DNA of 64,000 bases from Octopus vulgaris. Taxonomy: Eukaryota. The translations under genes were made by a program, and so were the position numbers. Location: the NCBI GenBank assembly GCA_951406725.2, contig OX597827.1, positions 15,190,001 to 15,254,000 on the forward strand, written 5' to 3'. The notes below the pieces were generated by a model, which was given only the letters and a program-made list of their open reading frames with translations, ran no database searches and was not told the DNA's origin. Shown here piece by piece: positions 10,750 to 35,417 of the stretch (the stretch's first letter is position 1; every line of letters starts with the position of its first letter).

Positions 10750-10805
<56 letters not shown>

Positions 10806-10812
10806 GGTGGTG

Positions 10813-10864
<52 letters not shown>

Positions 10865-10962
10865 TAGTGGTAGTAGTAGTAGTGGTGGTGGTGGTGGTGG
10901 TGGTGGTGGTAGTAGTAGTAGTAGTAGTGGTGGTGGTGATGGTGGTAGTAGTAGTAGTAGTA

Positions 10963-10995
<33 letters not shown>

Positions 10996-11009
10996 GCTGT
11001 AGCAGTAGC

Positions 11010-11048
<39 letters not shown>

Positions 11049-11118
11049 GGTGGTGGTGGCGGTGGTAGTAGTAGTAGTAGTAGTGGTGGTGGTGATGGTG
11101 GTAGTAGTAGTAGTAGTA

Positions 11119-11188
<70 letters not shown>

Positions 11189-11206
11189 CAGTAGTAGTAG
11201 TAGTAG
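10676..11206. repeat. (GTA)/(GTG) trinucleotide microsatellite
   Basis: Explains the poly-S/G, poly-V and poly-L/P ORFs. Confidence 0.95.
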
Positions 11207-11386
11207 AGCGCGATGACAGTGATGATGATAGGTCACTTGATCACTTGAGGTATTTTCGAGGCAACGAGGGAGTGGATAGCTGAATCTCTGAAAAGCTTGT
11301 GATTGTGGAATTTAATATCTGCAATTTATTATCTCATCAATTGTGCTAGCATTGAGGAGTGGCCGTGATTGTTGTTGTCGTCGTTA

Positions 11387-11568
11387 TGATAGATCGTTAG
11401 CCACTACACGCATTTGTTTTCTCTCCTTGTTTTTTTCTGTGTCCCTTTCTGTAGAAGAGCGTAGGCTCGAAACGTAAAAGACTTTTTCTATTCCTGAGCG
11501 TTATACTTATACATCTGTTTGTTTTGTACATCACCTGTCTTCGTCTTTTGTTTTTCTCGTAAATTCTC

Positions 11569-11572
<4 letters not shown>
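11387..11572 (+). mobile_element. Penelope-like terminal repeat with variant minimal hammerhead
   Basis: cttt-CTGTAGA-a-gagc(gtag)gctc-GAAA-cg-TA-aaag at 11445-11480; ends in (TA)n; near-identical copy at 59598-59776. Confidence 0.65.
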
Positions 11573-11600
<28 letters not shown>

Positions 11601-11606
<6 letters not shown>

Positions 11607-11842
11607 GAAATAAGGTACTCAGAAATCTGGATGGTTTTATATTTACAGATATTTATTAATAAGTCACATGTTTTTATGAATCATATATTAGCGCTTGCGT
11701 CCACTCTAGTGGAGTATTCTAGTGGAGTCTCCACTAGAGTGGACGCAAGCGCTAATATATGATTCATAAAAACATGTGACTTATTAATAAATATCTGTAA
11801 ATATAAAACCATCCAGATTTCTGAGTACCTTATTTCTTCTAA
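11601..11842. repeat. perfect palindrome (114-bp arms) in (TA)n, Penelope-like terminus
   Basis: 11601-11714 is the reverse complement of 11729-11842. Terminal motif tgagtaccttattt is shared with the 16249 element. Confidence 0.9.
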
Positions 11843-12032
11843 TATATATATATATATATAATTATAATTTTAATGTTGAAGCTGCTTTAGGTCAGTGATA
11901 TATCTTTATAGGGATTGGGGTGGGGTGGGTGGGTTTCTTTTTATTTATTTTTCGTTGTTCTTATCTTCTAAGCCTGAGAAAGGTAAGTAGGGGATGCGAT
12001 TATATATATATATATATATGCGCGCGCGCATA

Positions 12033-13260
12033 GAGGGTGCGATGGGTAAATTGTCGCCATTTTATATTTTTAATTTTGCGCATGTGGTTAGTTCGTTTTT
12101 GCTTTTGTCGACTACACAGTATAGTAGGATCAGATGGGCACCGCCTGTGAGAAAAACAGTAACATGACGCAATTCACTCAGCCACAAATTTGGAAACGAC
12201 ATGCTGTACTGCTTGGCATTTGCGCCGGAAGCTCCTATACACACAGTGTTTGGGTGACAATCTGAGACATGTTGTTGGAAGCACTCCGTCGGTTACGACG
12301 ATGAGGGTTCCGGTTGATCCGATCAACGGAACAGCCTGCTCGTGAAATTAACGTGTAAGTGGCTGAGCACTCCACAGACACGTGCACCCTTAACGTAGTT
12401 CTCGGGGATATTCAGCGTGACACAGAGAGTGACAAGGCCGGCCCTTTAAAACACAGGTACAACAGAAACAGGAAGTAAGAGTGAGAGAATGTTGTGGTGA
12501 AAGAGTACAGCAGGGACCACTACCATCCCCTGCCGGAGCCTCGTGGAGCTTTTAGGTGTTTTCGCTCAATAAACACTCACAACGCCCGGTCTGGGAATCG
12601 AAACTGCGATCCTACGACCGCGAGTCCGCTGCCCTAACCACTGGGCCATTGCGCCTCCACCTGAGGACATGTACTGAGAATGATAAAAATCAACATCATG
12701 GTGTTTGGAGTGATCACTAGTGATGGCGACATCATACTTCCATTAATCTTCCCACGCGCTCTCACACTCAACACGGAGGTCTACATCAAGTGTCTGGAAG
12801 AGGTAGTGCTGCCCTGGGTCAAAAGGGTGGCTGCTCGAAGACCTTATGTCTGGCAACAGGACCCTACACCATGCCACAGAAGCAGGCGAACCCAGTCAGA
12901 CAATTTCTAATATCTGGCCACCTAACTCCCCAGACTGCAAACCCCCTTGATTATTATGTGTGAGGCTCAGTTGAGCGAAAGACCAACAAAACTCCTTGTA
13001 ACACCAATGATAAACTGAAGGCAAGGATTATGGCAGTATTCATCAACTTAAAGAAGGAGACCGTCCAGAAAAGATGCAGGAGATTACGAAGTCTTCTTGA
13101 GGCCATGGTTGAAGCCAATGGCGATTTTATTGAATAAATTTACTCTTTAGCATTTCAATATATCTTCATGTAATTTTGGTAAATATATCTGTTAAAATGA
13201 GATGTCAGTGTTGTTTACAATTTTGCAAAATTTAGACGACAGTTTATTCACCGCACCCTG
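12033..13260 (+). mobile_element. Tc1/mariner maT-like (DD37D-type) transposon, internally deleted
   Basis: TIRs gagggtgcg..aaattgtcg / cgacagtttattcaccgcaccctg with TA flanks; MVFGVITSDG..WQQDPTPCH..WPPNSPDCKPLDYY..EANGDFIE* with frameshifts. Confidence 0.85.
12277..12660 (-). mobile_element. SINE family B inserted in the maT element
   Basis: Full length; imperfect TSD ctga(g)gacatgt. Confidence 0.9.
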
Positions 13261-13419
13261 TATATACATACATACATACATACATACACATACATGCATA
13301 TACATACATACACATACATACATACATATTTATACATACATACATACATACATATATACATACATATATATACATATATATATACACATATATATATACA
13401 CATACATATATACACATAC

Positions 13420-13452
<33 letters not shown>

Positions 13453-13559
13453 CATACATACACATATACATACATATATACATACATACACATATACATA
13501 CATACATACATACACATATACATACATACATACACACACATACACACATACACACATAT

Positions 13560-13602
<43 letters not shown>

Positions 13603-13783
13603 TATACATACACACACATACATACATATACATACACACACATACACACACACATACACACACATACACACACATACATACATATACATACACACACATA
13701 CGCACATACATATACATACACACACATACACACATATACATACACACACACACGCATACACACATACATACATATACATACAT

Positions 13784-13846
<63 letters not shown>

Positions 13847-13856
13847 TACATACATA
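13261..13856. repeat. (CA)/(TA)/(CATA) compound microsatellite
   Basis: Direct inspection; source of five spurious long ORFs. Confidence 0.95.
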
Positions 13857-14578
13857 TTGTTGTTTTATTAACGCTATAAATCGAAATTGTTTGAATGATA
13901 TTTTTTTTAAAACAGAAAAAATGTGGGGAGGAAGTTTTATATTAATGTTCATAGTTGTTAAAGTGGGCGGGAAGCAATAAAGTAGGAGATAATGGCAGAA
14001 GATAAAAAGACGATGTACATGTTAAAACGATAATGTATAAAACGGAAACAATACTCAGGAAAATATATAAAATATCGATCGATAGACAGACAGACAAGTG
14101 GGTGGGTGGGTGGATGTACGAGTGAGTGGACGAAAGAAAGAGGCGTTACATATTATCGTTTAAAACAGTTTGATTCGACCCCAATGCAATGTAAAGTCTT
14201 ATAGACTTCTTACAGAAACCTAATTCGTCGAATATCTCTCCATTCAGCTACCTGCGCTGAACGAGTTAGGATTCTGTAAAACTTTGAGTCGCATGGACCG
14301 AATCAATATATATATATATATATATATATATAATTCACTGCGGGGAGACTTTTTGAACACTGTGTATGTATGTGTATATATATATATATAATAGTTATCG
14401 CCATACTAATATGGCATTCTTATAAAAATAAGAAAAAAGCTGTCCGCTTATTAGCTCCATGAGGCCATCGCCTTAAGTTAGCTATTTGATACACAAACTG
14501 TATCCATATAACCTTCGAACAAGGGAGGTCAGTCGCTCCACACTACTTGACCGGCAGCTACACCTACTGGCTGGCTAC

Positions 14579-14620
14579 GCTGCATTGAAAAGGGGCAATA
14601 CCCCGAAACGCGTCTGTAGC
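14579..14620 (+). ncRNA. minimal type I hammerhead ribozyme (U3:A8 variant)
   Basis: gctgca-TTGAAAA-gggg(caata)cccc-GAAA-cgcg-TC-tgtagc: 6-bp stem I, 4-bp stem II, palindromic ACGCGT stem III, GUC site. Confidence 0.8.
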
Positions 14621-14940
14621 TGCCGGTCAAGTAGTGTGGAGCGACTGACCTCCCTTGTTCGAAGGTTATATGGATACAGTTTGTGTATCAAATAGCTAAC
14701 TTAAGGCGATGGCCTCATGGAGCTAATAAGCGGACAGCTTTTTTCTTATTTTTATAAGAATGCCATATTAGTATGGCGATAACTATTATTTTCCGGGAAC
14801 GCTGCCGCTGTTCTCTTTTAGAGAGACTTAGTTATTTTAATATTTCTATTATTGAAAACAAGTGGATGTATTCCACCGAAACTAGGTAAATAAAACCATC
14901 GAACAGAGATTGTCGGAAGCGACACCTACTGGCTGGCTAC

Positions 14941-14982
14941 GCTGCATTGAAAAGGGGCAATACCCCGAAACGCGTCTGTAGC
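14941..14982 (+). ncRNA. second copy of the minimal hammerhead ribozyme
   Basis: Identical to 14579-14620, 362 nt downstream. Confidence 0.8.
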
Positions 14983-15202
14983 TGCCGGTCAAGTAGTGTG
15001 GAACGACTGACCTCCCTTGTTCGAAGGTTATATGGATACAGTTTGTGTATCAAATAGCTAACTTAAGGCGATGGCCTCATGGAGCTAATAAGCGGACAGC
15101 TTTTTTCTTATTTTTATAAGAATGCCATATTAGTATGGCGATAACTATTATTTTCCGGGAACGCTGCCGCTGTTCTCTTTTAGAGAGACTTAGTTATTTT
15201 AA

Positions 15203-15270
<68 letters not shown>

Positions 15271-15278
15271 TACATATA

Positions 15279-15510
15279 CAGAGTGTTCAAAAAGTCTCTC
15301 CGCAGTTAATTTTTTCAAACACATCACCATGGCGCTATCTCAAGAGTTTTTCGGTGAACGGATTATTTCGAAGAGACTTTGACCACTAAAATCACCTGAT
15401 TTAACACCGCCAGACTTTTTTTTTCTGGAGAGCAAGTAAAGGATCATTGTACAATAATCTCCCGAAGACCATTAAATACTTACTGCGGAGAGACATTTTT
15501 TTAATACCCT
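15279..15510 (+). mobile_element. short rosa-like Tc1/mariner deletion derivative
   Basis: TIRs cagagtgttcaaaaagtctctccgcagt / actgcggagagacatttt; remnant FGERIISKRL*PLKSPDLTPPDFFFW; a lone TIR lies at 14337-14363. Confidence 0.7.
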
Positions 15511-15761
15511 TTATTCCACGTTGCTCCAGTCCACTTAACTGGTAAAAAAGAGTAGTACCTGCATTTCAAAGGGGCCAGCCTTGTCACACTGTGTCACGCT
15601 GAATCTCCCCGAGAACTACGTTAAGGGTACACGTGTCTATGGTGTGCCCACACACTTGCACGTTAATTTCACGAGGAAGATGTTCGATTGATCGTATCAG
15701 CTGGGACCTTCGTCGTCGTATGTATGTATGTATGTATACATATATATAGAAACAAAGATAT

Positions 15762-15839
15762 TTTATTACACACGGGCAGAAATATGGGAAAAATATAGAA
15801 GACGTCTTTCTATTTGAACTTTTTGAAAATCAGTGTAAA
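15762..15839 (-). other. candidate terminal exon
   Basis: Acceptor ctgttttacag|, then AATAAA at 15767-15762 overlapping an in-frame TAA. Confidence 0.35.
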
Positions 15840-16206
15840 CTGTAAAACAGGTTAAAACTTCAAATACTTTAATAAAAGATATTTTAACTATTCTCAGTGC
15901 ATTTTCAGCTTCTATTTTTCCTATGTGTGTGTGTGTACATACATACATACATACATATATATACACACACACACACACACATACGTGTGTGTGTTGTCAA
16001 TGTGCACCAGAAATATCCACTTGTTTTATATTACTCAGAAGAAATTATAAAAGCCACTCACACATTATTTTGAAATGCATTAATGTGATAAAGATTCGTT
16101 TGTTACAACCGAAACGAAAAATTGCCGGTGACAAATAGACTCAAAGAAGACATTTTTTTAAGGGTAATTTCAAAACATATTTAGCAGAAATCAGTTTTTT
16201 TTTCTT

Positions 16207-16248
<42 letters not shown>

Positions 16249-16251
<3 letters not shown>

Positions 16252-16436
16252 GGTCCCGGGGTGAGTCGGGGTTAACCACAGTAAATAAGGTACTCAATAC
16301 ATAGCAGAGTAAAATAATTTATTTTATTTTATAGAAGGAGCTTCTACAGGACTAGAACTGTTTCATTCAAATGAAATCTTCAGGAAGATTTCATTTGAAT
16401 GAAACAGTTCTAGTCCTGTAGAAGCTCCTTCTATAA

Positions 16437-16446
<10 letters not shown>
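16249..16446 (-). mobile_element. palindromic Penelope-like terminus with hammerhead core at its centre
   Basis: Arms about 16325-16381 and 16384-16441. Minus strand reads CTGAAGA-tttcatttgaat-GAAA-cagttctag-TC. Flanked by (TA)n. Confidence 0.7.
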
Positions 16447-16474
<28 letters not shown>

Positions 16475-16659
16475 GTGTCGCAAATATAGATATTAATCAA
16501 AACACATTAAGAATTTAATTCCTAAAACAGACCACTCGGCAAGAATATAGTTAGAAATTACAAACCTATCCAAATGAATATAAACATAAACATATAAATA
16601 CACAAATAACAAGTGATGCTTCCGTATTTCCGGGGCCAGATGAAAGTAAAAATGCTTAC

Positions 16660-16685
16660 CTTGTCGAAAGTTAAGCTGAATTTTC
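16660..16685 (-). other. candidate 26-nt micro-exon
   Basis: ttccattttccag|gaaaattcagcttaactttcgacaag|gtaagc in non-repetitive sequence. Confidence 0.5.
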
Positions 16686-17118
16686 CTGGAAAATGGAATT
16701 ATTAAGGATCGAGTGTTGATGTAGAAAATTAAATGAATTAACGAAGAATTCAAATAATTTCCGCAATGAACAGTAAATTACATAATAACATAAAAGCATC
16801 CTGTTTGCCATTTTCATTCTGTAATATGTATTTATTTGTTTTATTTAGTATCATGCATTTCCGTCAATTCGGACAGCTACTCGACACTTCCTATATCGAC
16901 ATCCGTTGTAAAAAAAAATTATAGATTTTTGATTAAATACATGTAATAAACCATTTGAATCCTTTACAAGACAAAATATTTAAACATATTTAACTGAAAA
17001 AAAAAAAATTTTATCTACTAATAACCAACATGGTATGCTGCAAAAGCATTCACAATCACTCAAGTACAATCTTGATTAGACGCTTCAACAAAATAGATAT
17101 TATTAGCCATAATAATAT

Positions 17119-17508
17119 AGGCGCAGGAGTGGCTGTGTGGTAAGTTGCTTGTTTACCAACCACATGGCTCCGGGCACCTTGGGCAAGTGTCTTCTACTAT
17201 GGCCTCGGGCCGACCAAAGCCTTGTGAGTGGATTTGGTAGACGGAAACTGAAAGAAGCCCGTCGTATATATGTATATGTATGTATGTGAATGTGTTTGTG
17301 TGTCTGTGTTTGTACCCCTAGCATTGCTTGACAACCGATGTTGGTGTGTTTATGTCCCCGTTACTTAGCGGTTCGGCAAAACAGACCGATAGAATAAGTA
17401 CTGGGCTTGCAAAAGAATAAGTCCCGGGGTCGAGTTGCTCGATTAAAGGCGGTGCTCCAGCATGGCCGCAGTCAAATGACTGGAACAAGTAAAAGAGTAT
17501 AAAAGAAT
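17119..17508 (+). mobile_element. SINE family A (small deletion in head)
   Basis: Similarity to the other copies. Confidence 0.9.
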
Positions 17509-17519
17509 AAACGGTTATA

Positions 17520-18228
17520 ATAATAATAATAATAATTAATTCTTTTACTGGCCACAAGGGCTGACAAAAATTAATTATAACATAAAGGGACAAAACACAG
17601 GACAAGAGTTACAAAGGGTTTTGTCCGTTTGTAAAAATCCGTGTAAAAAACAGTGTAACAATGAAAATATTTAACAATGAAAAACTCCCAATAGGGGGAG
17701 GCGCTTCGAAAGGTTCCTGGTGGAAAAACCCATAAAATCCACGGGAGCCTGGTCAAAAGCGGGGTAGAGAGCCTCTTTCTCCTTTTGTAATACCTTTTTC
17801 TTACAGGTGTATCCTCAGAATGGCTCCTTTCATACTGGCCATTCTTGCGACATTTATCCACCCTTCAATAAATTTGCCACGAGACATCACTTCCCTCTCT
17901 ACTCTCATCTTCCTTTTCAAGTGAAACTTGAAAAAGTTGATGAGGCCTGGGCCAAAGAGGAAAGTGTCTGACCTTAGCCCTTGCAAACGGGTCCACTTCT
18001 TTTGCTACAGCCACTAGGCAAAGGAAAACTGCCTTGCTCTCCCGGTAAAGGAGGTCGGCGGGGCAATCTTCACTATGGATTCAGCTGATAGCCGGATCCA
18101 TCCTATATGCAACAGTAGCTGTTCGACATAAACCCATAGTTCAGCAATACTCGGACACTGGACGAGTGCGTGCAGAATGGTTTCGTCGTCCTGGCAGCAC
18201 CTCCCCTCAAAATTGCTCGTTGTGTGCA
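17520..18228 (-). mobile_element. Tx1/L1-clade LINE 3' end
   Basis: RCCQDDETILHALVQCP (C-terminal CCHC knuckle), LINFFKFHLKRKMRVERE, then a 3' UTR; (AAT)n on both sides. Confidence 0.8.
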
Positions 18229-18286
18229 AAAATAATAATATTAGTAATAATGATTTCTTTTATTTGCCCCTTGAAAGAAAGCTCAC

Positions 18287-18332
18287 CTATTGATAGGTGT
18301 AGCAGTAGTATGTCCCTTTAACATCAAAGTAA
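18287..18332 (-). other. candidate 46-nt micro-exon
   Basis: tctgttttcttttcag|ttactttgATG..caatag|gtgagc. Confidence 0.55.
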
Positions 18333-18426
18333 CTGAAAAGAAAACAGATAAGATTAGTGGATACCAGTACTTTCGGGTTTAGGCTGCAAGAATGTAGTAC
18401 CGCAGCAAAGTCTGAGTCATTCTTAC

Positions 18427-18462
18427 CATGGAAGGATCACTTGGCACAGCGAGACTAGCAGA
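18427..18462 (-). other. candidate 36-nt micro-exon
   Basis: ttttctccactcatctttccag|tctgc..ccatg|gtaaga. Confidence 0.55.
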
Positions 18463-18839
18463 CTGGAAAGATGAGTGGAGAAAATTGGAATTGAAATCAA
18501 AACATCACTGCTTCAAAAAAAAACTTGTTTCTTAGGGACGGGGAGAATCATACGGTTATCTGAGGTCACAGGAAGTGACCTGATACCAAGAAAATTGACC
18601 GGCTAAATTGCATTTAAAAAGCTGTGATAAGGAAGATAACAACAGCAGCAGCAATACTATTGTAGATATTCTGAATGTCCGTTTCATTTCAAATTGCAAT
18701 CTCTTGAACAGATACGAATCAGGCTAAATTAATTAGCAAAGGATATTATCCTCAGCTTGGCGACAGGCTTCTTCAATTTCGAGACATGCTGTTACCAAGC
18801 CCCAAATTAGTATGTAATAGCTTTTGTTGAATAATACTT

Positions 18840-19355
18840 GTACATTGTTTTGTAATGTTATGTAAATTGTTTTGTTTTGGTATAAAATATGGGCTACAGT
18901 AAATATTCTGCTCAATACCACAGATTTGCTTGTCAGTTGTTTGACCTTAACCAGTTGAGCATGTCCCTTAGTGGCTGACGATATGTGCATCTCTGATCAC
19001 AAGCAGAAGTAGTTGGGGAGCATCATAGCAGTGTGGTGAGAGAAATTCACCTCTGGAAACATGGGTGTTTCGTTCATCATCTTTAAACAATCCTTATTCA
19101 GGTAGCTTTTGTGCGGAATGGGTTACTCGACCTGAAGAAAATTTTAACTGGGCCCTACCTGCAAGATCATGTGCTGTTAATCTTTATAATCTTTAAATGA
19201 GATCACCATGTCACGCACATATGGTTGTGATGCATGTACCTGGTGTACCCTTATCAGACGGGTGGTCATGATGGATATAGTGGATTTCGTATATTTTACC
19301 TCAGTGTCACTTTGATGGCATGCACTGCTCTCTCAATAATAATAATAATAATAAC
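18840..19355 (+). mobile_element. interspersed repeat, probable retroposon 3' UTR with (AAT)n tail
   Basis: Ends in (AAT)n; resembles a common octopod repeat as I recall it; family not assigned. Confidence 0.45.
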
Positions 19356-21169
19356 AATCCTTTCTATTAAAGGCCCAAGACCTGAAATTTTGGGGAAGGG
19401 ACTAGTCAATTACATCAGCTCCAGTGTTTCACTGGTACTTAATATATCGACCCCGGAAGGCAAAATCGACCTCCGCAGAATTTGAACTCAGAACGTAAAA
19501 ACGGACGAAATACTGCTAAGCATTTTGACCGACGTGCTTAAGGATTCTACCAGCTCGCCGACAATCCTGAAATCTTGGGGAGGGAGATAGTCGATTACAT
19601 CAACTGGTACTTATTTTATCAACCCCTTAAAGGATGAAAGGCAAAGTTGACCTCGGCAAAATTTGAACTCGGAACGTTGACAGCCGTAGCAAATAAGAAT
19701 TATGTCATATCTTATTGCCTCTCATACTGGTCTTGTATTACGTAAGTTCTTGGACGCTTACAACAGCTGACCGTTTGTGAATAAACTTCATTCTCAATTT
19801 TTCTATATAAAAATAGTGAGTCGAGACATTTCAGTAAAGTATTTGATGAATTTATCTTTTATGTATATACAGAAAGAAATATTTGCTTCAGACAGAGACA
19901 TTAATGTTTATTCTCGACACTGAACCTTTTATCATTAGATCCCCGTCGTTATTTGAAATATGAATGGCACGGACATAGAAATAAGAGGAACAACTGTTGT
20001 ATTACGTGATAAAAATACATTAGCATATTTATTTCAGTGTTACATAGACAAGCTCTTATAAAGAGGACATTTATGCAGCTTATGAATATATTAACACTGA
20101 AATTCATACCCATGAAATTTGGGTTAATCCTACGTGCATTAAATCACGTTCGATCAGCGAATCGCGTAACTTTTTTCTGAGAGCAATTTTTGCATCTGAA
20201 CTTCTGGTGAAAACAGTCTTTGGGCTTCCAATATAAAATAAATAAATAAATAAATAAAACTGTATAAATCGAGAGATTTGACCGAGAAAAAAGGCAACCA
20301 TTTAGAAAGAAAACAGAACGGAGCTGCCGACTCAATATTTTTAAATCTCCGTCAAGCAGAAAATAACCCATTAAGTTTGCTTTCAAATTCGTATAGCGTA
20401 AGTTATATAGATTTTTATCATATAAATCGCTTTATTAATCAAATTTAACGGTAGTTGGTTTTATAAATTATGTACGAAGCGTAGTTTACAAAAGAGTGAA
20501 TTTCATTAGTTTCGGAAAAGTTGATCTGAAAGACGAGCGGCGTCTCAGTTGTCAAAAGGTTCATAAAACCGCAAGTGTAAAAAGGTTCACGAAAAATACA
20601 ATTTCAAAATTAAATTAATTATAGTTCCACTGAGTGTCACTTTGGGGGCAAATGTCTTCTACCTTATAGCGCTGGGATAATCAACGGCATGAGAGCGAAT
20701 ATTCTTGACGGAAACTGTGTGGAAGCCCATCTTATATTCGCGCGCGCGCGTGTGTGCGTGTGTGCGTGTGTGCGTGTGTATCTTGCAGGCATGAAGTGGA
20801 TTCGATCCTAGATAGCTAAATTTAAATTCAACAAAACTTTTCTCACGGTGGAACAATGGTTTTTCAGTGACAGCAGTTTAACATATACCAGATGCCTTTA
20901 GCTAGGCCGAAATAATATCTTCACCACTTGACCCTTTCTCACCTCTTCTACTTCACTAAAAGCTAGAATTAAGAAAATAAGTACCACCAACGAAATCTTA
21001 TTGTTCTCACCGATATGCCTATCCATCTGGATAGTTCTAAAAGCAAGAACCCCAAGCAGTTAGTCACTCGGTAACAACTCGTGAGTTGAGAGAGAGCTAA
21101 CATCAGTTAGTGAGCCGACCACTAGCAGGCATACAAGCGGCCAGATGGAAAAAGAAAGTTTACAGTCAA

Positions 21170-21909
21170 TTTCTTTATTCGCCATAAGGTTGAGAAAAAG
21201 AGGGGACGATACGAGGACAGACAAAACAAACGTTGGGGTCTGGGGATCGAATGAGACGAAACGTATGAATAAACAAACAATTAAAATATATACAATTAAA
21301 TGAGAATGATTGATTTACAAAAAATGAAGCGGAGGACGCAGTCGACCCCACAAAACACATACTCATACTGAAGACTTTGCTTTCTCCTTTTTATATTTTC
21401 GTTTAAACAGGTTCTTTCACTCGCAACATACTTGCTATAGACTTCCATCTTTTACGAAACACACTTTGCGACAGGCATTTCTTCTCCAGCCTTATTTTCC
21501 GTTTCATGTGGAAAACGAAAAAGTCGATTAGCTCGAGACTGGAGATGAACATGCCTGTTGCAATTCCTTTCACTCTCGTCTTCCATACTACCTCTTTCGC
21601 AACCGCAACTACCGAGAGAAAACAGGCTCGCTCCTCCCTACTCAGGGAGGTCAGCGGAACGATCTTAATTACAGATTCGCTCGACAGTTGTACTCTTCTC
21701 GAATGCGACAGCAGGTGTTCGACATAAGCCCAGAGCTCAGTTACCTTGGGGCATTGCACAATCGCGTGCAGGACAGTTTCACTGACTGTCCTGCTCGCAT
21801 CTTGCACAAACCGGCGAAGGCGCACACCCATGTCTAAAGAGCTTATCTCGAACCGGTAAAGCTCCTCTGTAAAATTGCCAGTGCGACAATATGATACAAC
21901 TTTCCACAC
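21170..21909 (-). mobile_element. second Tx1/L1-clade LINE family, 3' end
   Basis: ETVLHAIVQCPKVTELWAYVE..KEVVWKTR..FHMKRKIRLEK..FRKRW, homologous to the 17.5-18.2 kb protein; the UTR ends at AATAAA. Confidence 0.8.
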
Positions 21910-22278
21910 CCTCTACTTTCACTTTCTCTTCTCTGCACATTACTATATCTCACTCTATGGATTACTACTACAATAAGAATATACAGGCCGAAATTAACCT
22001 TTGTTTCTTCGCATGCACTAGGATTTTATCACCTGCCCTCGAGACAAGGTATTGTTTAATGTAACGGTAAAATAAATATTTTCTTCACAACTTCAATCAC
22101 TGTTCTTTCGTCTTTACATAATAGCAATCAACAAAGAACCAATCCTTACAAACAGATTACATTCTATCCTACTGTGTATCAATTATCGTTTTTCATACTA
22201 TTGCTTACAAATTAATTTCAACCGTAAAAAAAAAAATTAATCTTCAACGTCATATATATATATATATATATATATATA

Positions 22279-23463
22279 CTAGCATTATGATCCGGCGTTG
22301 CCGGGTCATAGCGCTAGTTTGGTATAAATTTGTTAAATTAAAAATTTGGAGTAATAAAACATACAATGACATATTAAAAAGACGAATTAAAATTCCAGAG
22401 AAAAATACATAGAAGATAAATATACAAATTTACAAAAATACATAAAAGTTCATCTACGGGCCGTTTCGGAGATGCGCCAATTAATATGAAACATATAATA
22501 TATTTAAAATTGACACTCCCCTCGTCAGGATGTTTTTTTACACACAACACATAGTACACGGAAACAAATGCACAATTACGTAGCGGCTACATGCGAAAGA
22601 CCAGACATTACGTACTCCCAAAAATTCTCATAGATACTGAATGCTACTTTATAAGCATGTAATTCAATCTAGCAGCTATAGTAAATGGTATGCGCACAGC
22701 TGGACTAATTCACTTCTGCACTCAATTAAATTTTTAATCGTTTGATTTCTCCCATTCATGCAAAGCCAAATATTCGAGTTCAAGTCCTTGATACATTTTA
22801 TACTAATTGCTATTTTTTCTTTAGTTTTATTTTAATTACTACTTTCTATATTTACTATATTTAATTCAATTGTTATTATTACCTCTAACTTTTATTGCTA
22901 TTTTTATTTCTAAATTTCTTATGGAACGTCGAGTGGATCTTATGCGTACAATATATTTTTATATGATGTTTATATATTACTATATATTTCTAAACGTCAG
23001 GCTTTATATCTGTTCTGTAGATATATATGAATATATGTATGTGTTTGATCTTTCTGTGGATTTTGTAGTGCTCTTGTAGTTGCTGCTCGCATTGCTTCCC
23101 CTCGGATTAAAAAGTGTATACAGCTCATTTGAGCGCTACTATTCCAGTCTCTTATACATTTTGAGCGTTGTTGTCACTAACGATCTCAAGATATAACTTT
23201 ATATTTTGTAATATATACATATATATATACATCCATATACATACAATAGAGAGATATTTTTGTTTCACTTTTAACACGTAATACTGAAATAGTGGAGAAG
23301 ATATGATATTGCTGTGAGCTCGCCCTAGGCAAGAAGTTGAACATTTTTTTGCCCATGAAACTACATGGACCCTAAGTAAGGCATGTGTAAAATTTGAATG
23401 AAATTGGTTGTGTAGTTCTCAAGTTTTAGGGAAACACACAGACAGACAGACACACATTCTCAG

Positions 23464-23465
<2 letters not shown>
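22279..23465 (-). mobile_element. non-autonomous Helitron with about 1 kb of internal cargo
   Basis: 3' hairpin gacccggcaacgccggatc plus CTAG at the left; Helitron-like 5' region (tgtgtgtctgtctgtctgtg) at the right; TA flanks. Confidence 0.65.
22451..22532 (-). ncRNA. type I hammerhead ribozyme, canonical core
   Basis: catc-CTGACGA-ggggagtgtcaatt..aattggcgcatctcc-GAAA-cggcccg-TA-gatg. Confidence 0.8.
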
Positions 23466-23499
<34 letters not shown>

Positions 23500-23514
<15 letters not shown>

Positions 23515-24011
23515 TGCAATTGTGTAAGTGTCTGTCCCCTTCGATTTAGATTCTTAACTACTCCCACATTTTGCGGTGCAGTTTAACCAAATTCGGGTAT
23601 CTTATAGTCGTGATTCACATCGAGCCCGTCTGGCTATTAGCGCGCGTCTACGATGAGTCTACGATTTTAAAAATAATTTAACATCATTTTTTATTCCATT
23701 TTAATGCATATTTTTTCGTGTGTCGATGGCGGCGGAGTTGGCGTCCATGGTCACACCTGCACCTGTGTTGCTTCTCCCTCTTCTTCCCTCCCTCGTGAAG
23801 CTGTGGGGAAGGGAGTGTAAGGAAATCAACGTCGTAAAGCGTTGTCAAGGAGACCAGCGTTCTTTTAGAACAACGACTTCATGGCTTGAAGACACCAAAA
23901 CAGAAATGGCTAAGAAAGCCCGAATTGGCATCTATAAGGGAAGTAACTCTCTAAAAATGCTTATATAGTTATTTCCCTTACAAACCCGAGCAACGCCGGG
24001 CGATACTGCTA

Positions 24012-24012
<1 letters not shown>
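23500..24012 (+). mobile_element. non-autonomous Helitron, long variant
   Basis: Same ends as the 3580 copy, with an extra segment of about 215 bp (23718-23932). Confidence 0.85.
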
Positions 24013-24065
<53 letters not shown>

Positions 24066-24066
24066 A

Positions 24067-25334
24067 TTGGGTCATTCCATAAATAATGCGTTTATTTTTA
24101 TAGTTCTTTTATTTTTCAAAATTAAGATAAATAAAGTTCTTTGTTAATCTAAAATATACTCTCCATTTTCTACAATGCTCTTCCATCTATCTGGTAGACT
24201 TGCAAAACCCTCTTCTAAAATTCACTTGTCCGTAACGAAAAATGCCCATTCAGTATTGTTTTGACTTCGTTTACAGAATTCATATTTTTTCCGTCCAAAT
24301 GATTTTGAAACATGCGAAATAAACGATAATCAGATGGGGTAATGTCCGGCGAATATGGTGGGTGGGCATTGTTACCCATTCAAACTGCTCCAGCCTTTGG
24401 AATGTCATCCTTGCTGTATGTGAGCCGAGCATTATCCTGATTGAAGAACACCTTTCGTCTTGAAACCAAAGGTGATCGTTTTTCTTCCAGCGCTGACTTA
24501 AGGTACTCGAGCTGCTCGCAGAAGATCTCCCTTGTTATCGTCTGGTTTGTGTTTAAAAGTTCAAAATGGACTAAACCTTTCATATCCCACCAGACAGATA
24601 ACAACAGCTTACGTGGGTGGAGACCTTCTTTAGCTTGGGGTGCCACTGTTTCTCCTTTCCCTACCCACTGTTTTCGGCGCTTGGCATTTTTATAGAGAAC
24701 ACATTTCTCATCACCAGTTACTTTTCGGTGCAAAAACGGTTCATTCGGGGTAGGTGCCAGCAAAGAAGAGCACACATTCACTCTCTGTGCACGATTAGAT
24801 TCAGAAAGTTTGTAAGGAACCCATTGACCCAATTTTCTAATTTTTATGATGGCTCACAGGTGTTGATGAATGGTTGAATGACCAAATCCAAGCTTTTCTG
24901 CTAGTTCCTCAACAGTTACGATGGGATTTTGATCCACCAGGGTTTGCAGGACGTCCTCGCCGAGCTCTACAGATCATTCAGGATGAGACTCGTTTTCTAG
25001 GCTGTAGTTTCCGGCTCGGAATTTCTGGAACCACCATTGACACTAGTTTACTATTATTGTCCGATTCCCACACACTACATTAATATTCCTCACACTTTCT
25101 GTTGCGATGTTGCCTTTATTGAATTCATAAAGCAAAATATGCCGAATGAGCTTCTTTGTCACTTGCATTATGGTTTTGAAAAAAATTGCACTCTTCATAA
25201 CTTACACTAAGAATAAGTACAAGGTAAAATTAGTACCTGCTTTTATAGCAAGTTGATGCAGGTAGTTTATCCCGTTCCCTTCCGACTTTAATTCAAGTAA
25301 TTGAAAGAGCGGCAATTTTTATGGGATGACCCAA
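24067..25334 (-). mobile_element. full-length mariner (DD34D) element with disabled transposase (about 25168-24146)
   Basis: TIRs ttgggtcattccataaa / tttatgggatgacccaa with TA TSD; MQVTKKLIRHILLYEF, WVPYKL, VTGDEKCVLY, QDNAR, HPPYSPDITPSDY; several stops and frameshifts. Confidence 0.93.
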
Positions 25335-26800
25335 TATATATACTCTTTGTGTGTTTGAGAGAGAGAGAGAGTGTGTGTGTAGTGTATGTGACTTTGTGTC
25401 TGTTTGTCAGATATCCACTACCGTCTGACAACCAGCGTTCGTTTGTTTACGTCCCCGTAAATTGGCGATTCGGCAAAAGAGACCAATACATTAAATACCA
25501 GACATTAAATCGAAATGCAAATACTAGGATCGATTTGTTCGACCAAAACCGGCCAAAGCAGTCCCTCAGCAGAACGCAGTCCATATTTCCTAATTAATCC
25601 TCTAAATTTAATTAGAAATAACATTGCTAAGTCAACTAGGTAGAAGCATGAGTTATCTGGAACAGCCAATCTGTTGATAATACCAAGTTGTTTGGACAAC
25701 TGCCTTACTTACATGCTTAATCAGAGCTGACCAGAGGCTAAACAAAATTTAGCCAATGTTGGAATGATATGGCAGAGAATATTCCCAGTTTTGAACAGCA
25801 AACAGTTAAAGGGAAATTTAATCCTACATTTTCAGGAGTTTTCAAATTCTTCAAGATCTCCACTCCTGGTGGAAGGAGAGGGAAGCAGTTATCCTCAGAC
25901 TGTAGAGAGTATCTGAATGTGTACAAGAGAGTGAATCCCACAAGAGAGTGAAGCACTTAAGGACCAGGTGAGGGAGTTAAATTGGTCAACTGATTAAGTC
26001 TGCTGCCCAAGAACTAAGAATGCAAAGAGCTGTAAAAATACTGTTAGACATTTCTGTCTAATGCTTTAACAATTTCAATTAACTATTTCACTGGTACTTT
26101 ATTTTATTGACCCCTAAAAGATGAACAGTGAAGCTGACCTTGTTAAGATTTGAATATAGACCACAGGGAGCTAGAACAGATGTTGCAAGACATATTATCC
26201 TACATTTTCAGGTGTTTGTAAATTTTGTGATTGTCAGAGTATTCAAACCACTATTCCACACAGCTGTAGAAGTACTGGAAATAGAGGTTCTGAGTTCCAA
26301 CTCACTTATGAGACATTCAGATATCTAAGAATTTATTTTTTTAATGACTTAATCTGAAGAAGAGTACATGACCCTTTTTAGGGCTTCTGCAGCTGGTGGG
26401 AGAAAAAAAAGAAGTCTTCTTCAGACTAAATTCTTGCAATAGAGTGGACCCTCTTAAAGGTACCCAAATATCCTCAGGTGGTTGATTTAGGACTACATAG
26501 GAATGCTAAGAGAATTGGCTGGTCAGAACTTTGAAGAAAGTAGAAATATGAAATATAATAGAAACTGCATGGAAGATTACTCAGAAGAAGAATTTTGTGC
26601 AGAAACAAACCTAACACATGTCAGCATGATGGAATAACAGAGGTAAAAATGATGATGATTGTGAATAAGGGAAGAAATCATTTAGTAAAAATAAAAGTAC
26701 TTTCATAAGTCAAGGATGGAACAATAATAAATAAAAAGGCAGAAAATATATATATATAGTAAAGAAATATAAAAGAAAAAGTAAAGAAATATATATATAT

Positions 26801-27112
26801 ATCACCGTGATCACTGTGACTGACCAGGCTATCAGATGTTGCTACACATAGCTGGTCACAATGCGCTTCGCATTGTTTTAGCCTTCAAATGACGCCACCC
26901 CGCTGGCTAAGCGAGCAGGCCAACAGAAGAAAGAGTGAGAGAAAGTTTGCGGCGAAAAAGTACAGCAGGGATCGCCACCACCCACTGCCGGAGCGTCGTG
27001 GAGCTTTAGGTGTTTTCGCTCAATAAACACTCACAAAGCCCGGTCTGGGAATCGAAACCACGTTCCTACGACTGCAAGTCTGCTGCCCTAACCACTGGGC
27101 CATTGCGCCTCC
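26801..27112 (-). mobile_element. SINE family B head with alternative tail (B2)
   Basis: Tail ..ggcctgctcgcttagccagcgg..gatcacggtgat; second copy at 60907-61217. Confidence 0.85.
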
Positions 27113-28707: not shown

Positions 28708-29884
28708 CTGCATGCAGTTTCTATTATATTTCATATTTCTACTTTCTTCAAAGTTCTGACCAGCCAATTCTCTTAGCATTCCTATATAGTCCTAAAACCA
28801 CCACCTGAGGACATTTGGGTACCTTTAAGAGGGTCCACTCTATTGCAAGAATTTAGTCTGAAGAAGACTTCTTTTTTCTCTCCTACCAGCTGCAGAAGCC
28901 CTAAAAAGGGTCATGTACTCTTCTTCAGATTAAGTCATTAAAAAAATAAATTCTTAGATATCTGAATGTCTCATAAGTGAGTTGGAACTCAGAACCTCTA
29001 TTTCCAGTACTTCTACAGCTGTGTGGAATAGTGGTTTGAATACTCTGACAATCACAAAATTTACAAACTCCTGAAAATGTAGGATAATATGTTTTGCAAC
29101 ATCTGTTCTAGCTCCCTGTGGTCTGTATTCAAATCCTAACAAGGTCAGCTTCACTGTTCATCTTATAGGGGTCAATAAAATAAAGTACCAGTGAAATAGT
29201 TAATTGAAATTGTTAAAGCATTAGACAGAAATGTCTAACAGTATTTTTACAGCTCTTTGCATTCTTAGTTCTTGGGCAGCAGACTTAATCAGTTGACCAA
29301 TTTAATTCCTTCACCTGGTCCTTAAGTGCCTTTAATGGGATTCACTCTCTTGTACACATTCAGATACTATCTACATTCTGAGGATAACTGCCTCCCTCTC
29401 CTTCCACCAGGAGTGGAGATCTTGAAGAATTAAAGAGTGATGAGCAACGCCCTTACCTCCCAGACTAAATGATTTTAAAAAGACATGAAATAAATATAGA
29501 CTAACTCCAAAAACATGCAAATTCCTCCAACATCAAAAGAGGAGTTTTCAAGGTCAGTGCTTACATCTAGTTGTATTATATTTAAAGTAGATGAGAATGC
29601 AATCTCATTTTGGAAGCTGCAATGTTCAATGATGTATTTCCAATAACATTCCATGATGACATGGTAGCTATTCTGGGCAGCTAGATAAACTAAAGAAATC
29701 TGAAATAAAAAGGTTCTTCTCAGAAGCAGCAAAATGTGACGGTGATAAGCAAGCATCACTGTGATACAACTGATGTTTGTTTTCACTCATTCATGGAAAA
29801 TATTACCTTGCTTAGAAAATGGGGAGGGTTGGCAACAGGAAGGCCATCCAGTCACAGAAATTCTGCCTGACCCATATAAACACG

Positions 29885-30314
29885 GGTATCAGCGCTGCCT
29901 TGACTGGCTTCTGTGCCAGTGGCACATGACCTGCTGTGCTTGAGGACACCTATTGAGTCAAGTACATCAACATCAAAATGAATATCAAATGGAAATAGTA
30001 GTTGTGATACCTGTGCCAGTGGCACGTAAAAAGCACCATCCGAACGTGGTCGATGCCAGCGCCGCCTTGACTGGCTTCTGTGCCGGTGGCACGTAAAATG
30101 CACCAACCGATCGTGGCCGCTGCCAACCTCCCCTGGCACATAAAAAGCACCCACTACACTCACGGAGTGGTTGGCGTTAGGAAGGGCATCCAGCTGTAGA
30201 AACATTGGCAGATCAGACTGGAGCCTGCTGCAGCCTCCTGGCTTCCCAGACCCCGGTCGAACCGTCCAACCCGTGCTAGCATGGAAAACGGACGTTAAAC
30301 GATGATGATGATGA
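29885..30314 (+). mobile_element. retroposon 3' region with internal repeats and (GAT)n tail (probably RTE-associated)
   Basis: Repeated ggcacgtaaaaagcacc motif; ends ggacgttaaac(gat)n. Confidence 0.65.
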
Positions 30315-33300
30315 TATATATATATATATATATATATTTATTTATTTATATTTTATCAACGGTATATATTGTGAGTGTGCTAGATGAGCACTGCACAGCC
30401 ATCAAAGATGGTAAATTCATAAATTCTCACTCAACAATTTAGTCACAGATCATAAAGTGAAAGTAATATTTTTCTATCCACAATTATGAGATATTGTGGC
30501 TGTTGTTCTGGTGACAGAACTGGCTGTCAAGAATGCAGTGTAATTCAGGGTATGGCACTAAGTGGATGGTACAATAATGAAAGTATGACCAAAATGAGGA
30601 CCAATATGAGAACCAACATTCCACAAGCACGCATCCGGTGTTTGTTTTCAAGGTGAGAAGTTTTATGTATAAAATTGTTGAAAATTAACTGAAACTATTT
30701 TGCTTGATAATTCTGTTCTTTCACTATCAGCATGTAATATGGAGTAATTTTTTTTTAAACTCTAAAAATACACACTCAATAGCAAATATTAAATCAAAAT
30801 TTTGAGTTGTTGGCGTTATTTTAAAATTTGTGTGTAAAATGAAATTAATCTCTAAATTTGCAATTCATACAAATTACAGAACATGCGTGACAATTCGTAT
30901 TACATATTCAAACTAGGCCGAGGGCGACTTTGCCTTTCATCCTTTCGAGATCGATAAATTAAGTACCAGTCAAGTACTGGAGTCGATCTAATCGATTGGC
31001 CTCCTCCCCCAAAACTTCGGGCTTTGTGTCAAGAGTAGAACAAGAAATTCATATTACATAATCAATATGTATTACGTATAAAAATAACTCAAAGTTTGTA
31101 GGCTTATTTTTGAGTAATAATAAATAGGTTCAGCAAGTAACACAGTGCACGCACTCCATAACAACAACAAGAAAAGCATCTACACATACGTGTAAAGTGA
31201 TATGTCAAGCTGCGTCCGATAACTTGGCCGCTCGACAAATAGAGATCAAAAGAATAAGTGCTAGACTGAAATAAAGTCTGCGGTCGAAACGATCAACAAA
31301 AACTCGCGAAGGCAGAGTCCCAGTATGGCCCTGTATGTCCAGAGCCTGAAACTAGTAAAAGGGATAAAAACAAAACTTCAGCCAAGCAATGAAACGGATT
31401 CCTCTTTTAATTTAGTAGAACTATTGAATATTAAAATAGCAACGGGTATATATAAATGTTAAAGTAGCAACGGGTATATAAATTATTGAACAAGAAAAAT
31501 TGCTAAACAAAATGTTTAATGAAATTCCTGACATTAATTGGTAAGTGAAATTATCCAGTTGTATTTATCTATTTACAAGGCATTAAGAATGAACTACTAA
31601 TGAAGTACTACCACTCAAATGACTAAATACGAGCCAAACACGGAGCCTCTATGAAATCGTTATACTTACTAGAAATAGCAGCCAAATCCCTCCTAAAACC
31701 ATCCCCAAATGTTTTAAACCCTTTTCCACTTTAGGCACAAGGCCAGAAATTTGGGGGGTAGGTGGATAGTCGATTACATCGACCCCAGTGCTCAACTGGT
31801 ACTTATTTTATCGACGGGGTGGTCATCGCTGGAATTCCTTTGATCTTAGGTCTATTTGATCAAGGGATGAACTGATGCTAAATAACTGGCATCAGTTGAG
31901 ATTTTGGTTTCATAAGGGTTCGATAGTTATTCACCTTCGATATAGATGTAACTGACATATCTTTCTTTTCAAGTATTAAAGTTTATTATTACAGTTTAGA
32001 CACCGTGATTACGGCGATAATATTGCTTGTCTAAAAATTGAGAGAGAGAAATAGTCTATCAGGTGAAAATAAAATAAAAACTGTTTAAATCATAAAAGAA
32101 TAAATTAATTTAAAGCTTCATTCTTTTATAATTAAGGTGTTCTTTCACCTCATCTAAATTACATATTATGCGATTTTTTAAAAATCAAATAACTGATAAC
32201 TTATATTCAATTTATACTCAATACAGACAGAAAAATATGGTTTACTACAAAAGTTATGTTCTTAAGAATATAAAGAAATAGATGAGTTCGGAATGTTTTA
32301 ATAGCGATAAATATTATCATTTGTCCGCAAAGTGGGGGAAAAGCTGTGGCATTTAAGTGCGTATTTTATTTTTTAATTTGCTTCTTTTAAAAAAAAATAT
32401 TTATAATACTTATATAATAAGTGATCCAGCCATTTATTTTATCGCATCACGTATCACTTAAGAAAGCGACATTCGAAATTTTAAATTGAAACATCAGAAA
32501 AAAATAAAAAAAGACAAGAAGCCAAAGTAATACATAAGCAGGAAAAAAAAAACAACTGGTCAGAAATTGCATAAGAATTAACATAAAAAAATTTTTTCGT
32601 AGAATTTGCGTATCAAAAATATATAAAAGTACGACATGGTGATCGATATCAAAACGGGCACCTGAAATATCTGTATCAATTAACAATAAATTGCATTTTA
32701 TCTTAATAATATTTTAAATAAGATGCTTAGTCGCGGCTACAAAATGTCGACAGGGGCTGATTTCGAGATATTTTTCTACTCACGCCTTTTTTATTTTATT
32801 TTTTATACACATCCAAGGAGCGTTACGAAATTTTTTTTCATCGTTAGCAAGTAGCAAGAACAATTAAGTCGGTGTGACCGGTGTAAAAGTCCAATTTCAG
32901 TAAATACCATTAGGTCTTCCTTAGAATTGGTTTCTAAGTAAAACAAGCTATCGTTGAGATCTTCTAATTGCTATTAAAAACGTCAGGATCTTTTTAGAAA
33001 CGTTTGATGTTTGGTAAAAAAACATATTCGAGTATATTTTGGCAGATTTTCTACTGGAAACACAACCAATTCTATGGTGCTTTATAATTGTCTCCCTTCA
33101 TCTCTATTTTTCTCAGTTGACATGTATCCTCCCCTTTTCTTAACTTGTCTTTCTTCACCCCTCCTACTCCTATGACCGCTTGATCCTTAATTGAAGTTCC
33201 AACTTATAAGTAAGGTAAGTGCTGCAACAGATAAACTCTACAATACACCACCTGTTGCTTAATTACATGAATCACTTTCAAAAATTAGTAAATTTATTTA

Positions 33301-34849
33301 TTTCTATTAGCAATTATTTTCTTTCTTTAATCAGCCTTTTATTATTATTATTATTATCATTATTATTATAAATCACACATGAAATGTTCTTTTCCTTCCG
33401 TCCCCATTTAATACTAGTTCCTAGTTTTACTTTGGCAACGATTACTGGTAATTATGTCATCGTCGAAAATGTGTCAGGCTGATCCGATCTGTGATGGCCT
33501 GTGACATGAATGCTTCCATCTCGCTCGCACCAATTCCAGACTCACTCTTACCACTTTGAGTAAGAACTATCAAATTCGCTGTCAAACAGGCAAATTGTGA
33601 TTAAGTCGACCGAAATATAAATAGTATTCATTTTTAAAAATTTAATCTAAGAAAATCTATTTGCTTTAAATATTTTTCTTTTTTTTATATATTTTTAGAG
33701 AAAGAAAATATTTCCCCAGAAAAAATGTTAAAATTGTTTAAATTTAAAGTGAAAAATTAATATTTAAAAAGTTTCTCTTTACAATCACAAAAATGTGCTG
33801 GAATTAAATTGAAAATTTTAAAAAATATTTAGCTTGGCATCTTTTGATCTTTGATGCTTACTTTCCTTTTGCACAAAAGTAATACCTGTCTTGTATTAAA
33901 AGTTTTCTTTCTAAACCGGGAAATAAGAAATCAGCGATTGTCATGGTTATGAAAAAAAATGAAATAAAAAGTTTAAAATTTCTTTATTTTGTTTTTAATT
34001 TGCTTTCTGGTTATCCTTGATTACAACTCTAACGAAGTAAACTTACTAACTACTTAGATATCAAAATTTATTTGTAAATATTGTGACATTCGGATTTTAC
34101 CTATTTCTTTCATAACATCCTTCTTTTAAATTAATTAAAATAATAAGCTGCACACACCTTCTATTTATCTGTATTCGTTAATTTGATTTTTTTCTAAATC
34201 ACTTTTCATTATTTTGCTTATAGATTATATTAACAAATCCAATATGCCTCTACGGGCCATATTCAAAAGCTGTCGTATTTTTGTGAGAAACCTGTGTAAG
34301 GTTTAATAATTTTATACTTCTCGATAAAATCTAGTTTAAAACTGTTGCGTATTATAACATGTTTTGGTTTACTGTCATATTACATAATAATATCAGTGTG
34401 GGATCCAAACCTTATTTGTCACATTACCTTCCACTGGTTGTTACATCAAAGCAGTACCTTGGTAGATATTTTGCGAAGTGACCATACACTTCTCTTCAAT
34501 TACCCTCAGAAGTTAAAGATTCTTTACTAGTAATAACTATTATCATTTTTTGTGTAATACTACTTTTCATTAGGTATATCTATATTAGTCACCAACCACT
34601 TACGATCGGTTTAAAATGATGCAGTGTTCAATTAACACCAAATATTAGTGCAACAACTTTCTCTACAAGTGATTAAAACCTGAAACGAAAACGTGAAGCA
34701 AGGCAGATAATTCCAATATCAGCCAAGCGGAATGTTTTAGTAGTTAAAGATGATGATATCAGAGTGGATCTTGTCTTTAAAGGTTATTAATCTCATTGTG
34801 AGATCGTACCGTATGTGTATATATATTTTTTAACGTAGAGCGCTCCACG

Positions 34850-35172
34850 GATATTTCCCTTCGGCCATATTGTAGAGGTTCTTAACCAGTATCGTTGTAT
34901 GGGAGGTCACAGCTTCGGAACTACGGGCAGGTGATTAGAATGTCGCAGGAAACAGTCGCAATCGGGATTCTTCAAACCGAGCCAGCCGGCTGGAGAGACC
35001 TACTGGTAGACCAAGAATGAGATGGTTGGATGGTATCCAAAGCTTCAGTTGGTCGCGCTTGGAACTCCGGACGGAAAGAGGAATGACGGTTGCTTCTGAT
35101 TAAGACCGTATGGAGGAGGTGATTGGAGTTCTCTATTCCACAAGCCTCCCAAGGATATCGGGCGTTGAAGAT
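34850..35172 (+). mobile_element. RTE-type LINE 3' end (decayed)
   Basis: QLRNYGQVIRM..RPTGRPRMRWLDGI pattern. Confidence 0.7.

Positions 35173-35386: not shown

Positions 35387-35417
<31 letters not shown>

Follow-up and report, generated by a model that had tools for sequence, protein, structure and literature searches.

A hammerhead ribozyme motif within a multi-copy non-autonomous Helitron of Octopus vulgaris

The ribozyme-bearing element and its surroundings

The window analysed here, a 64-kb (64,000-nt) stretch of the Octopus vulgaris genome (contig OX597827.1, positions 15,190,001 to 15,254,000), contains a 1.19-kb element at positions 22279-23464, which lies between a (TA)13 and a (TA)23 tract and bears a type I hammerhead motif on the minus strand (22451-22532). 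Read 5′ to 3′ on that strand, the element consists of a Helitron 5′ core with a (CTGT)n microsatellite (23238-23464), an acquired internal sequence (22533-23237), the hammerhead motif, a T-rich stretch of 132 nt (22319-22450) and a Helitron 3′ terminus (22279-22318). The distance from the ribozyme to the terminal CTAG (22282-22279), on the same strand, was measured as 172 bp; an earlier reading made from the letters of the window (the sequence-only reading) had given about 170 bp.

The 3′ terminus borders on a (TA)n tract at 22252-22278, and on the minus strand CTAG is followed by a host T at 22278; the target itself is a TA tract. A palindromic hairpin of 41 nt spans 22278-22318 and folds as DNA at -12.8 kcal/mol (z -5.5, a value reached by 0 of 200 shuffles). 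The element thus ends in a 3′ hairpin followed by CTRR, one of the marks of HLE1 Helitrons as defined in the available part of PMC11417382. The same 3′ end is recognizable in three ribozyme-free sibling copies (at 23984-24013, 40045-40074 and 3579-3608). Alignment also relates the 5′ terminus to those of three siblings, and two of these have A|TC at their start; in the ribozyme-bearing copy the end merges into (TA)23 and a 5′-TC is not visible. The non-autonomous Helitron host proposed in the sequence-only reading is supported by the hairpin-CTAG|T 3′ end and by a 5′ end homologous to those of siblings that start with TC.

The acquired interior is a patchwork of AT-rich segments which differ in abundance, as judged from depth, joints and loose ends, and one of its parts is a decayed TA tract around 23200-23245. 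In 22240-23520 we found neither a tandem repeat of the ribozyme unit nor a pseudo-LTR pair or an inverted truncated copy. The window contains no second copy of the ribozyme segment.

Sibling non-autonomous Helitrons lacking the ribozyme were identified at 23511-24013 (plus strand) and, by similarity within the window, at 40045-40330 and 3579-3880. The first is placed head-to-head with the ribozyme-bearing element, and repeat and sequence reading assign the (TA)23 tract at 23465-23510 to both; its interior differs from that of the other sibling copies and is longer. A decayed Helitron helicase end was observed at about 7350-7420 and 7868-8278, in which the two halves of a Pif1 2B match (Pfam, below the curated cut-off) lie around a SINE at 7421-7868. 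Four further intervals, 24383-24853 (minus), 21406-21912 (minus), 38027-38359 (plus) and 46945-47025 (plus), correspond in this order to a mariner-type transposase fragment (Pfam Transposase_1), two fragments lacking a convincing Pfam match which, from their resemblance, are probably LINE 3′ ends, and a tRNA-like sequence (Rfam).

Structure of the hammerhead motif

Helix I of the motif is formed by CAUC (22532-22529) and GAUG (22454-22451), giving 4 bp on the minus strand. It is followed by the first core half C3UGACGA9 (22528-22522) and by helix II, in which 22521-22508 pair with 22482-22468 in 14 bp with one bulged A at 22473. The loop of helix II is AU-rich and 25 nt long, and 7 further pairs are possible in it. 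The second core half, G12AA, occupies 22467-22465, and helix III is the palindrome ACG-GCC-CGU (22464-22456) with 3 pairs and a 3-nt loop. A17 is at 22455, so that the predicted cut falls between 22455 and 22454. The motif therefore has a type I core (C3UGANGA9, G12AA, an A15.1-U16.1 pair and H17) and three helices of 4, 14 and 3 bp, with helix I open. The first bases of the T-rich stretch at 22319-22450 are predicted to be able to prolong helix I beyond a 3x3 internal loop.

The sequence-only reading had described an intact CUGACGA core, a stem I, a stem II of about 14 bp with an AU-rich loop and a near-palindromic stem III, and all of these are present on the minus strand where it had placed them. 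Its label of a canonical hammerhead applies to the core and not to the motif as a whole. Rfam gave no hammerhead family, either above the gathering threshold or in a list of 38 weaker hits (E up to 10). The spacer separating the core halves is 54 nt, four times longer than in 33 Hydra-clade hammerheads, where it measures 11-17 nt. A likely cause of the Rfam miss is the length of helix II.

A descriptor of the core and the three helices gave one match only in the 64 kb, on both strands, and this match was at 22532-22451. The same descriptor was matched by 0 of 200 dinucleotide-shuffled local windows. A loose long-helix pattern, requiring the core only, matched 120 loci in viral contigs, none of which had the three helices when judged with a similar descriptor, and no exact ribozyme words were found in viral contigs or metagenome contigs. 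Folding was less distinctive. The free fold of a 92-nt stretch has a z-score of -1.75 (10 of 200 shuffles were equally good), the minimum-energy fold has helix II and lacks helix III, and the pairing probability of helices I and III is near zero in a 220-nt context. When forced, the hammerhead fold is 2.3, 2.8 and 7.1 kcal/mol above the minimum in contexts of 82, 112 and 220 nt, and three Hydra-type controls forced likewise are 5.3, 5.6 and 8.6 kcal/mol above theirs. The Rfam miss, the weak z-score and the near-zero pairing of helices I and III would all be compatible with a chance arrangement in a captured, hairpin-bearing sequence that was never a ribozyme. This explanation is scarcely credible in view of the shuffled and core-only controls, and the palindromic helix III is of the Penelope type even though the descriptor does not demand it.

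It has been reported that many animal hammerheads work as dimers which pair through helix III (PMC4209133, PMC7229834), and that motifs of similar kind cleave poorly as monomers (accessible part of PMC4209133). In our analysis two helix III palindromes pair with each other at -10.2 kcal/mol. A lone copy is predicted to cleave weakly, since its helix III is short (3 pairs closed by a 3-nt loop); two copies could form an active dimer via the palindrome, and dispersed copies would be predicted to meet in this way only rarely.

Copy number and linkage in sequencing runs

Of 24 sequencing runs listed, 20, from 10 studies and four organism labels, contain 0.23-0.55 of the sampled words of the element. 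None of the listed runs is recorded as RNA; X10, which may be RNA, did not enter into any reading of expression. Four runs were aligned to it, namely X3, X7, X10 and the raw-read run X22. The alignment figures given here are those of the listed variants, joints, loose ends and pieces; a further 23 variant rows, 7 joints, 413 loose ends and 8,421 pieces lie outside them. In X22, whose organism label is that of the run richest in words of the element, 7 of 12.9 million reads aligned, and none fell on the ribozyme or on either end. Three X22 reads with less than 90% likeness to 23038-23117 run into a TA tract at 23113, a hint which suggests that an older TA-inserted element ends near this position.

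In X3, 6,079 contigs were aligned to the element. Summed over these contigs, the depth was 268,000 in the terminal 40 bp. It was 29,000-39,000 from there to the ribozyme, 20,000-26,000 across the ribozyme itself and 8,000-27,000 immediately upstream, and it rose to 0.7-1.7 million in the 5′ core, which is common to a far larger family. The profiles of X7 and X10 have the same shape; in X3 and X7 the last 40 bp are about 7-9 times deeper than the next bin. Both ends of the element and its interior are thus multi-copy, and the ribozyme motif itself is multi-copy in X3, X7 and X10. Its summed depth is 23,000 in X3 and 1,300 in X7, compared with 30-65 and 4-9 for long variant-rich contigs. This corresponds to roughly 450 copies (357-779) in X3 and 177 (139-334) in X7; summed contig depth is not copy number, and these figures are orders of magnitude, about 150-800 overall.

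The copies are distinct from one another. Variants inside the ribozyme are carried by 36 X3 contigs at 22473 and by 44 at 22497. We found that the listed pieces tile the region from near the 3′ end through the ribozyme (22292-22379, 22326-22491, 22428-22576 and 22469-22636), each covering only part of the element. None of the 19 listed loose ends occurs in more than three contigs between 22319 and 22455. There is one listed contig which crosses 22318, with a short side of 26 bases, below the 31-base rule; linkage of the ribozyme to the Helitron 3′ end draws its support from the lack of loose ends in this list. Behind 22318, loose ends in 34 and 33 contigs were considered as a family boundary and set aside, since the end is palindromic and they may be reverse-aligned flanks of other copies. 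In other copies, deletion joints at 22383-22534, 22617-23099 and 22897-23288 (one contig each) leave the order of parts unchanged, and the last of them connects the interior to the 5′ core. The junction at 23204-23246 is masked as repeat, and the linkage to the 5′ core is therefore carried by this one contig. At 22950, five contigs in X3 and two in X10 exit into the same other sequence, so that the interior also occurs in a longer or alternative form.

The sequence-only reading had left room for a one-off later insertion, that is, a single retroelement fragment inserted late into one Helitron copy. The 64-kb window, with no second copy, and the lack of the segment in most 5′-core relatives would agree with it. 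It is nonetheless very improbable and was rejected: the ribozyme and its flanks are present in dozens of distinct variant-bearing contigs under three organism labels, the tiling proceeds from the 3′ end with no listed break, and the deletion derivatives keep the order of parts. That reading had also held that its proposal would fall if other copies of the Helitron lacked the segment. The answer depends on the level at which copies are compared. Many copies have the ribozyme within the subfamily, and in the wider family it accounts for about 1-2% of the 5′-core depth. With a depth only 0.8-2.2% of that of the 5′ core, the ribozyme marks a subfamily, which makes up only about 1-2% of the elements sharing this Helitron 5′ core. 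Comparison of the ribozyme-bearing copy with the majority shows 17 listed differences over 1160 nt, and as this divergence is only about 1.5% (a lower bound) the subfamily is young.

The ribozyme depth is 0.70-1.24 of that of the stretch toward the 3′ end (three runs) and 1.9-2.9 times that of the interior upstream. The latter ratio is what 5′ truncation would give, and bears on a spread through RNA, in which a non-autonomous Penelope-like element or retrozyme would be inserted into TA tracts by a Penelope reverse transcriptase and the Helitron ends would be cargo or neighbours. Insertion into (TA)n is documented for Hydra-clade elements in the accessible part of PMC8557442, one X10 contig has a diverged homologous flank upstream of the ribozyme, and 5′-truncated retro-copies could also exist. 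We nevertheless regard a spread of this kind as unlikely. The depth does not change abruptly at the cleavage site and none of the listed joints or loose ends falls there, no backward joint is found among the best 15 of 22 joints, and a tandem repeat of the unit is absent. The 3′ end is the Helitron hairpin-CTAG shared with ribozyme-free siblings, and the lower upstream depth falls on a cluster of changes private to this copy, at which short contigs would be lost.

Origin of the ribozyme

Hydra-clade Penelope-like elements insert into (TA)n and have 3′ hammerheads, including one from O. bimaculoides (PMC8557442, available part); the present motif differs from the hammerhead published there for Hydra-1_Obim. 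For comparison we used 121 loci with the Hydra-type endonuclease motif, 62 of which have at least 300 nt after the stop. A sense hammerhead was detected in 33 of these 62 loci and an antisense one in none. The helix III span is 9 nt in 22 of the 33 and A is at the cut in 16. Both traits recur in the ribozyme: its helix III, a near-palindrome AC...GU of 9 nt with an A after it, is of the Penelope type. The element has a sense-strand hammerhead near its 3′ end with a palindromic helix III, as Hydra-clade elements do, the length of helix II apart.

A covariance model was built from 24 of 30 distinct Hydra-type motifs, near-duplicates being left out. With this model the ribozyme site reached 11.6 bits, at E 0.009 in a search confined to the element and at E 0.5 in one of the whole window, where it came behind two weaker-looking partial matches. 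The same model detected a second hammerhead at 16339-16389 (minus strand; 23.3 bits, E 9e-5), which has a CUGAAGA core, a short helix II, a 4-bp helix III and a GUA cut, and no BLAST similarity to the main motif. It is located in a perfect 120-bp palindrome within a 196-bp insert (16248-16443) between two (TA)n tracts. A fold-back of this shape has been described for Penelope insertions, and the insert resembles a Penelope-like 3′ end that was inverted and truncated; folding back would sequester the ribozyme. Penelope-type ends thus insert into the TA tracts that these Helitrons also occupy, and capture is readily imagined.

Coding remnants of a donor were searched for in the element. Pfam matched none of the six frames of the interior, and phmmer, run on one of the six, gave no hits. 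A 59-residue piece, examined by protein word search, supported no GIY-YIG-like or other remnant. A profile of 39 Hydra-type proteins gave a best whole-frame E of 0.83, and the best tblastn match (E 0.011) was unconvincing. A five-residue resemblance to a Hydra-type endonuclease end at about 22690-22790 was discarded on its noise-level profile score. The element thus lacks the open reading frame for a reverse transcriptase with a C-terminal GIY-YIG domain and CxxC and CxH motifs that characterizes the Hydra clade, and it is not assigned to that clade. Naiad_Ovul, for which a 'half core' is reported, was weighed as a donor; six short words had no match in the supplement of PMC8557442, in which line breaks may hide words. 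Just upstream of the ribozyme core, 19 of 21 letters at 22530-22550 (minus strand) match the Hydra-1_Obim consensus about 25-45 nt upstream of its hammerhead; this by-eye match in low-complexity sequence may be due to chance.

From its architecture, a Penelope origin of the ribozyme is likely, and the T-rich stretch at 22319-22450 is likely the 3′ tail of the captured retroelement. The multi-copy contigs support the proposal of the sequence-only reading that a Penelope or retrozyme piece is being spread by a Helitron, the Penelope part of it being drawn from architecture.

Proposed history of the element

The explanation that we favour, and consider probable, is that a hammerhead from a Penelope-like 3′ end was captured once in a Helitron and amplified as DNA, with the ribozyme as a passenger. 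A Penelope-like 3′ end in or beside a short Helitron would have become enclosed between the 5′ core and the hairpin-CTAG end, either by bypass of the 3′ terminator or by insertion of the retroelement into a TA tract inside the Helitron. Terminator bypass is the standard model of Helitron capture (PMC6431247, in its available part). The chimera would then have been copied as DNA by rolling-circle transposition, with RepHel supplied in trans, to probably hundreds of sites, and the ribozyme is predicted to play no part in the transposition cycle. We infer a single capture and mobilisation in trans by RepHel of the host.

It is also conceivable that the ribozyme is kept by selection, cutting read-through or host transcripts, so that silencing triggers are fewer or the cost of insertion is altered and intact masters are favoured. 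All six listed variants in the motif spare its structure (one in the bulge, three substitutions and one deletion in loop II, and one change of G-C to G-U), the probability of at least five of six falling in unconstrained positions being about 0.014, and four of five CpGs have no listed variant. The cost of forcing the hammerhead fold, 2.3-7.1 kcal/mol, is similar to that in the three Hydra controls (5.3-8.6). This test is, however, post hoc and uses six listed events, with 23 variant rows outside the list; an intact core is expected anyway at about 1.5% divergence from the majority, and mutation may be faster in the AT-rich loop. Some 98-99% of the elements that have this 5′ core thrive without the ribozyme, and the poor monomer cleavage of similar motifs (PMC4209133, as far as accessible) also speaks against selection, which we consider doubtful. 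The stronger form of this idea, in which the Helitron would have domesticated the RNA enzyme and the long-helix-II hammerhead would be active and selected in hundreds of copies, cutting read-through transcripts and shielding the element from RNA-based silencing, appears improbable to the same degree. If true, a domesticated hammerhead would amount to portable self-cleavage sites planted genome-wide. Capture with the ribozyme as a passenger remains the reading that we prefer.

Comparison with known systems and significance

The closest parallels in Helitron structure are Lep1, an insect non-autonomous Helitron with a variable acquired interior, and Hel-2. Both are described in the available parts of PMC4038834 and PMC4344730 as having a conserved 5′ core, a variable acquired interior, a 3′ stem-loop with CTAG and insertion at A|T; Hel-2 also has (CTGT)n near its 5′ end, and one Hel-2 copy contains an internal 577-bp piece of another transposon. 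These elements are likened here by description and not by sequence. Ribozyme cargo is not mentioned for them in those parts, and the acquired part of the ribozyme-bearing Helitron measures about 920 bp. A rolling-circle spread of a non-coding internal module in a mollusc genome has been described for the Cg_HINE Helentrons of the Pacific oyster (PMC7492417, available part), which are HLE2-type with satellite-like arrays, whereas the CTAG end of the octopus element is of HLE1 type and its cargo is a ribozyme motif.

As regards the ribozyme, Penelope and Hydra-clade hammerheads are likewise type I, with a helix I of 4-5 bp, a 9-nt palindromic AC..GU helix III, A at the cut, a position 100-200 nt from the 3′ end and a TA-tract niche (PMC4209133 and PMC8557442, accessible parts). 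The octopus element differs from the Hydra clade in lacking a remnant of the reverse transcriptase or endonuclease and a pseudo-LTR pair, and in having Helitron ends as its flanks. Animal non-LTR retrozymes, as described in the available parts of PMC7229834 and bioRxiv 10.64898/2026.07.22.740005, are also non-coding, multi-copy and type I, with a weak helix III that favours dimer cleavage. They are organized as tandem units of 170-400 nt which give rise to circular RNA, whereas the octopus element has a single motif in 1.19 kb, DNA-transposon ends and no tandem unit.

Eight recently active Helitron families and 31 Penelope-like families have been reported for O. vulgaris in PMC13282606; the words 'ribozyme' and 'hammerhead' do not occur in the main text of that paper. 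Our literature search, which covered openly accessible text and thus few subscription papers and not Repbase, found no published report of a hammerhead carried in a Helitron, and in the accessible text of papers that name both the two terms are unconnected. Hammerheads and Helitrons are each well known, and the capture of foreign DNA is normal for Helitrons; the new part is the hammerhead as Helitron cargo. The cargo is unusual, yet it is an expected outcome of known Helitron capture, and if it is only a passenger it adds one more example of such capture.

Hammerheads in animal genomes have been regarded as signatures of retroelements that move by way of RNA. A Helitron subfamily with probably hundreds of them would be a second, DNA-based route, and because of this route hammerhead counts can overstate the activity of retrozymes and Penelope-like elements. 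Many young copies with no need for a function at the RNA level would also provide a natural experiment, in which neutral decay could be set against selection and sense-strand exclusion from introns.
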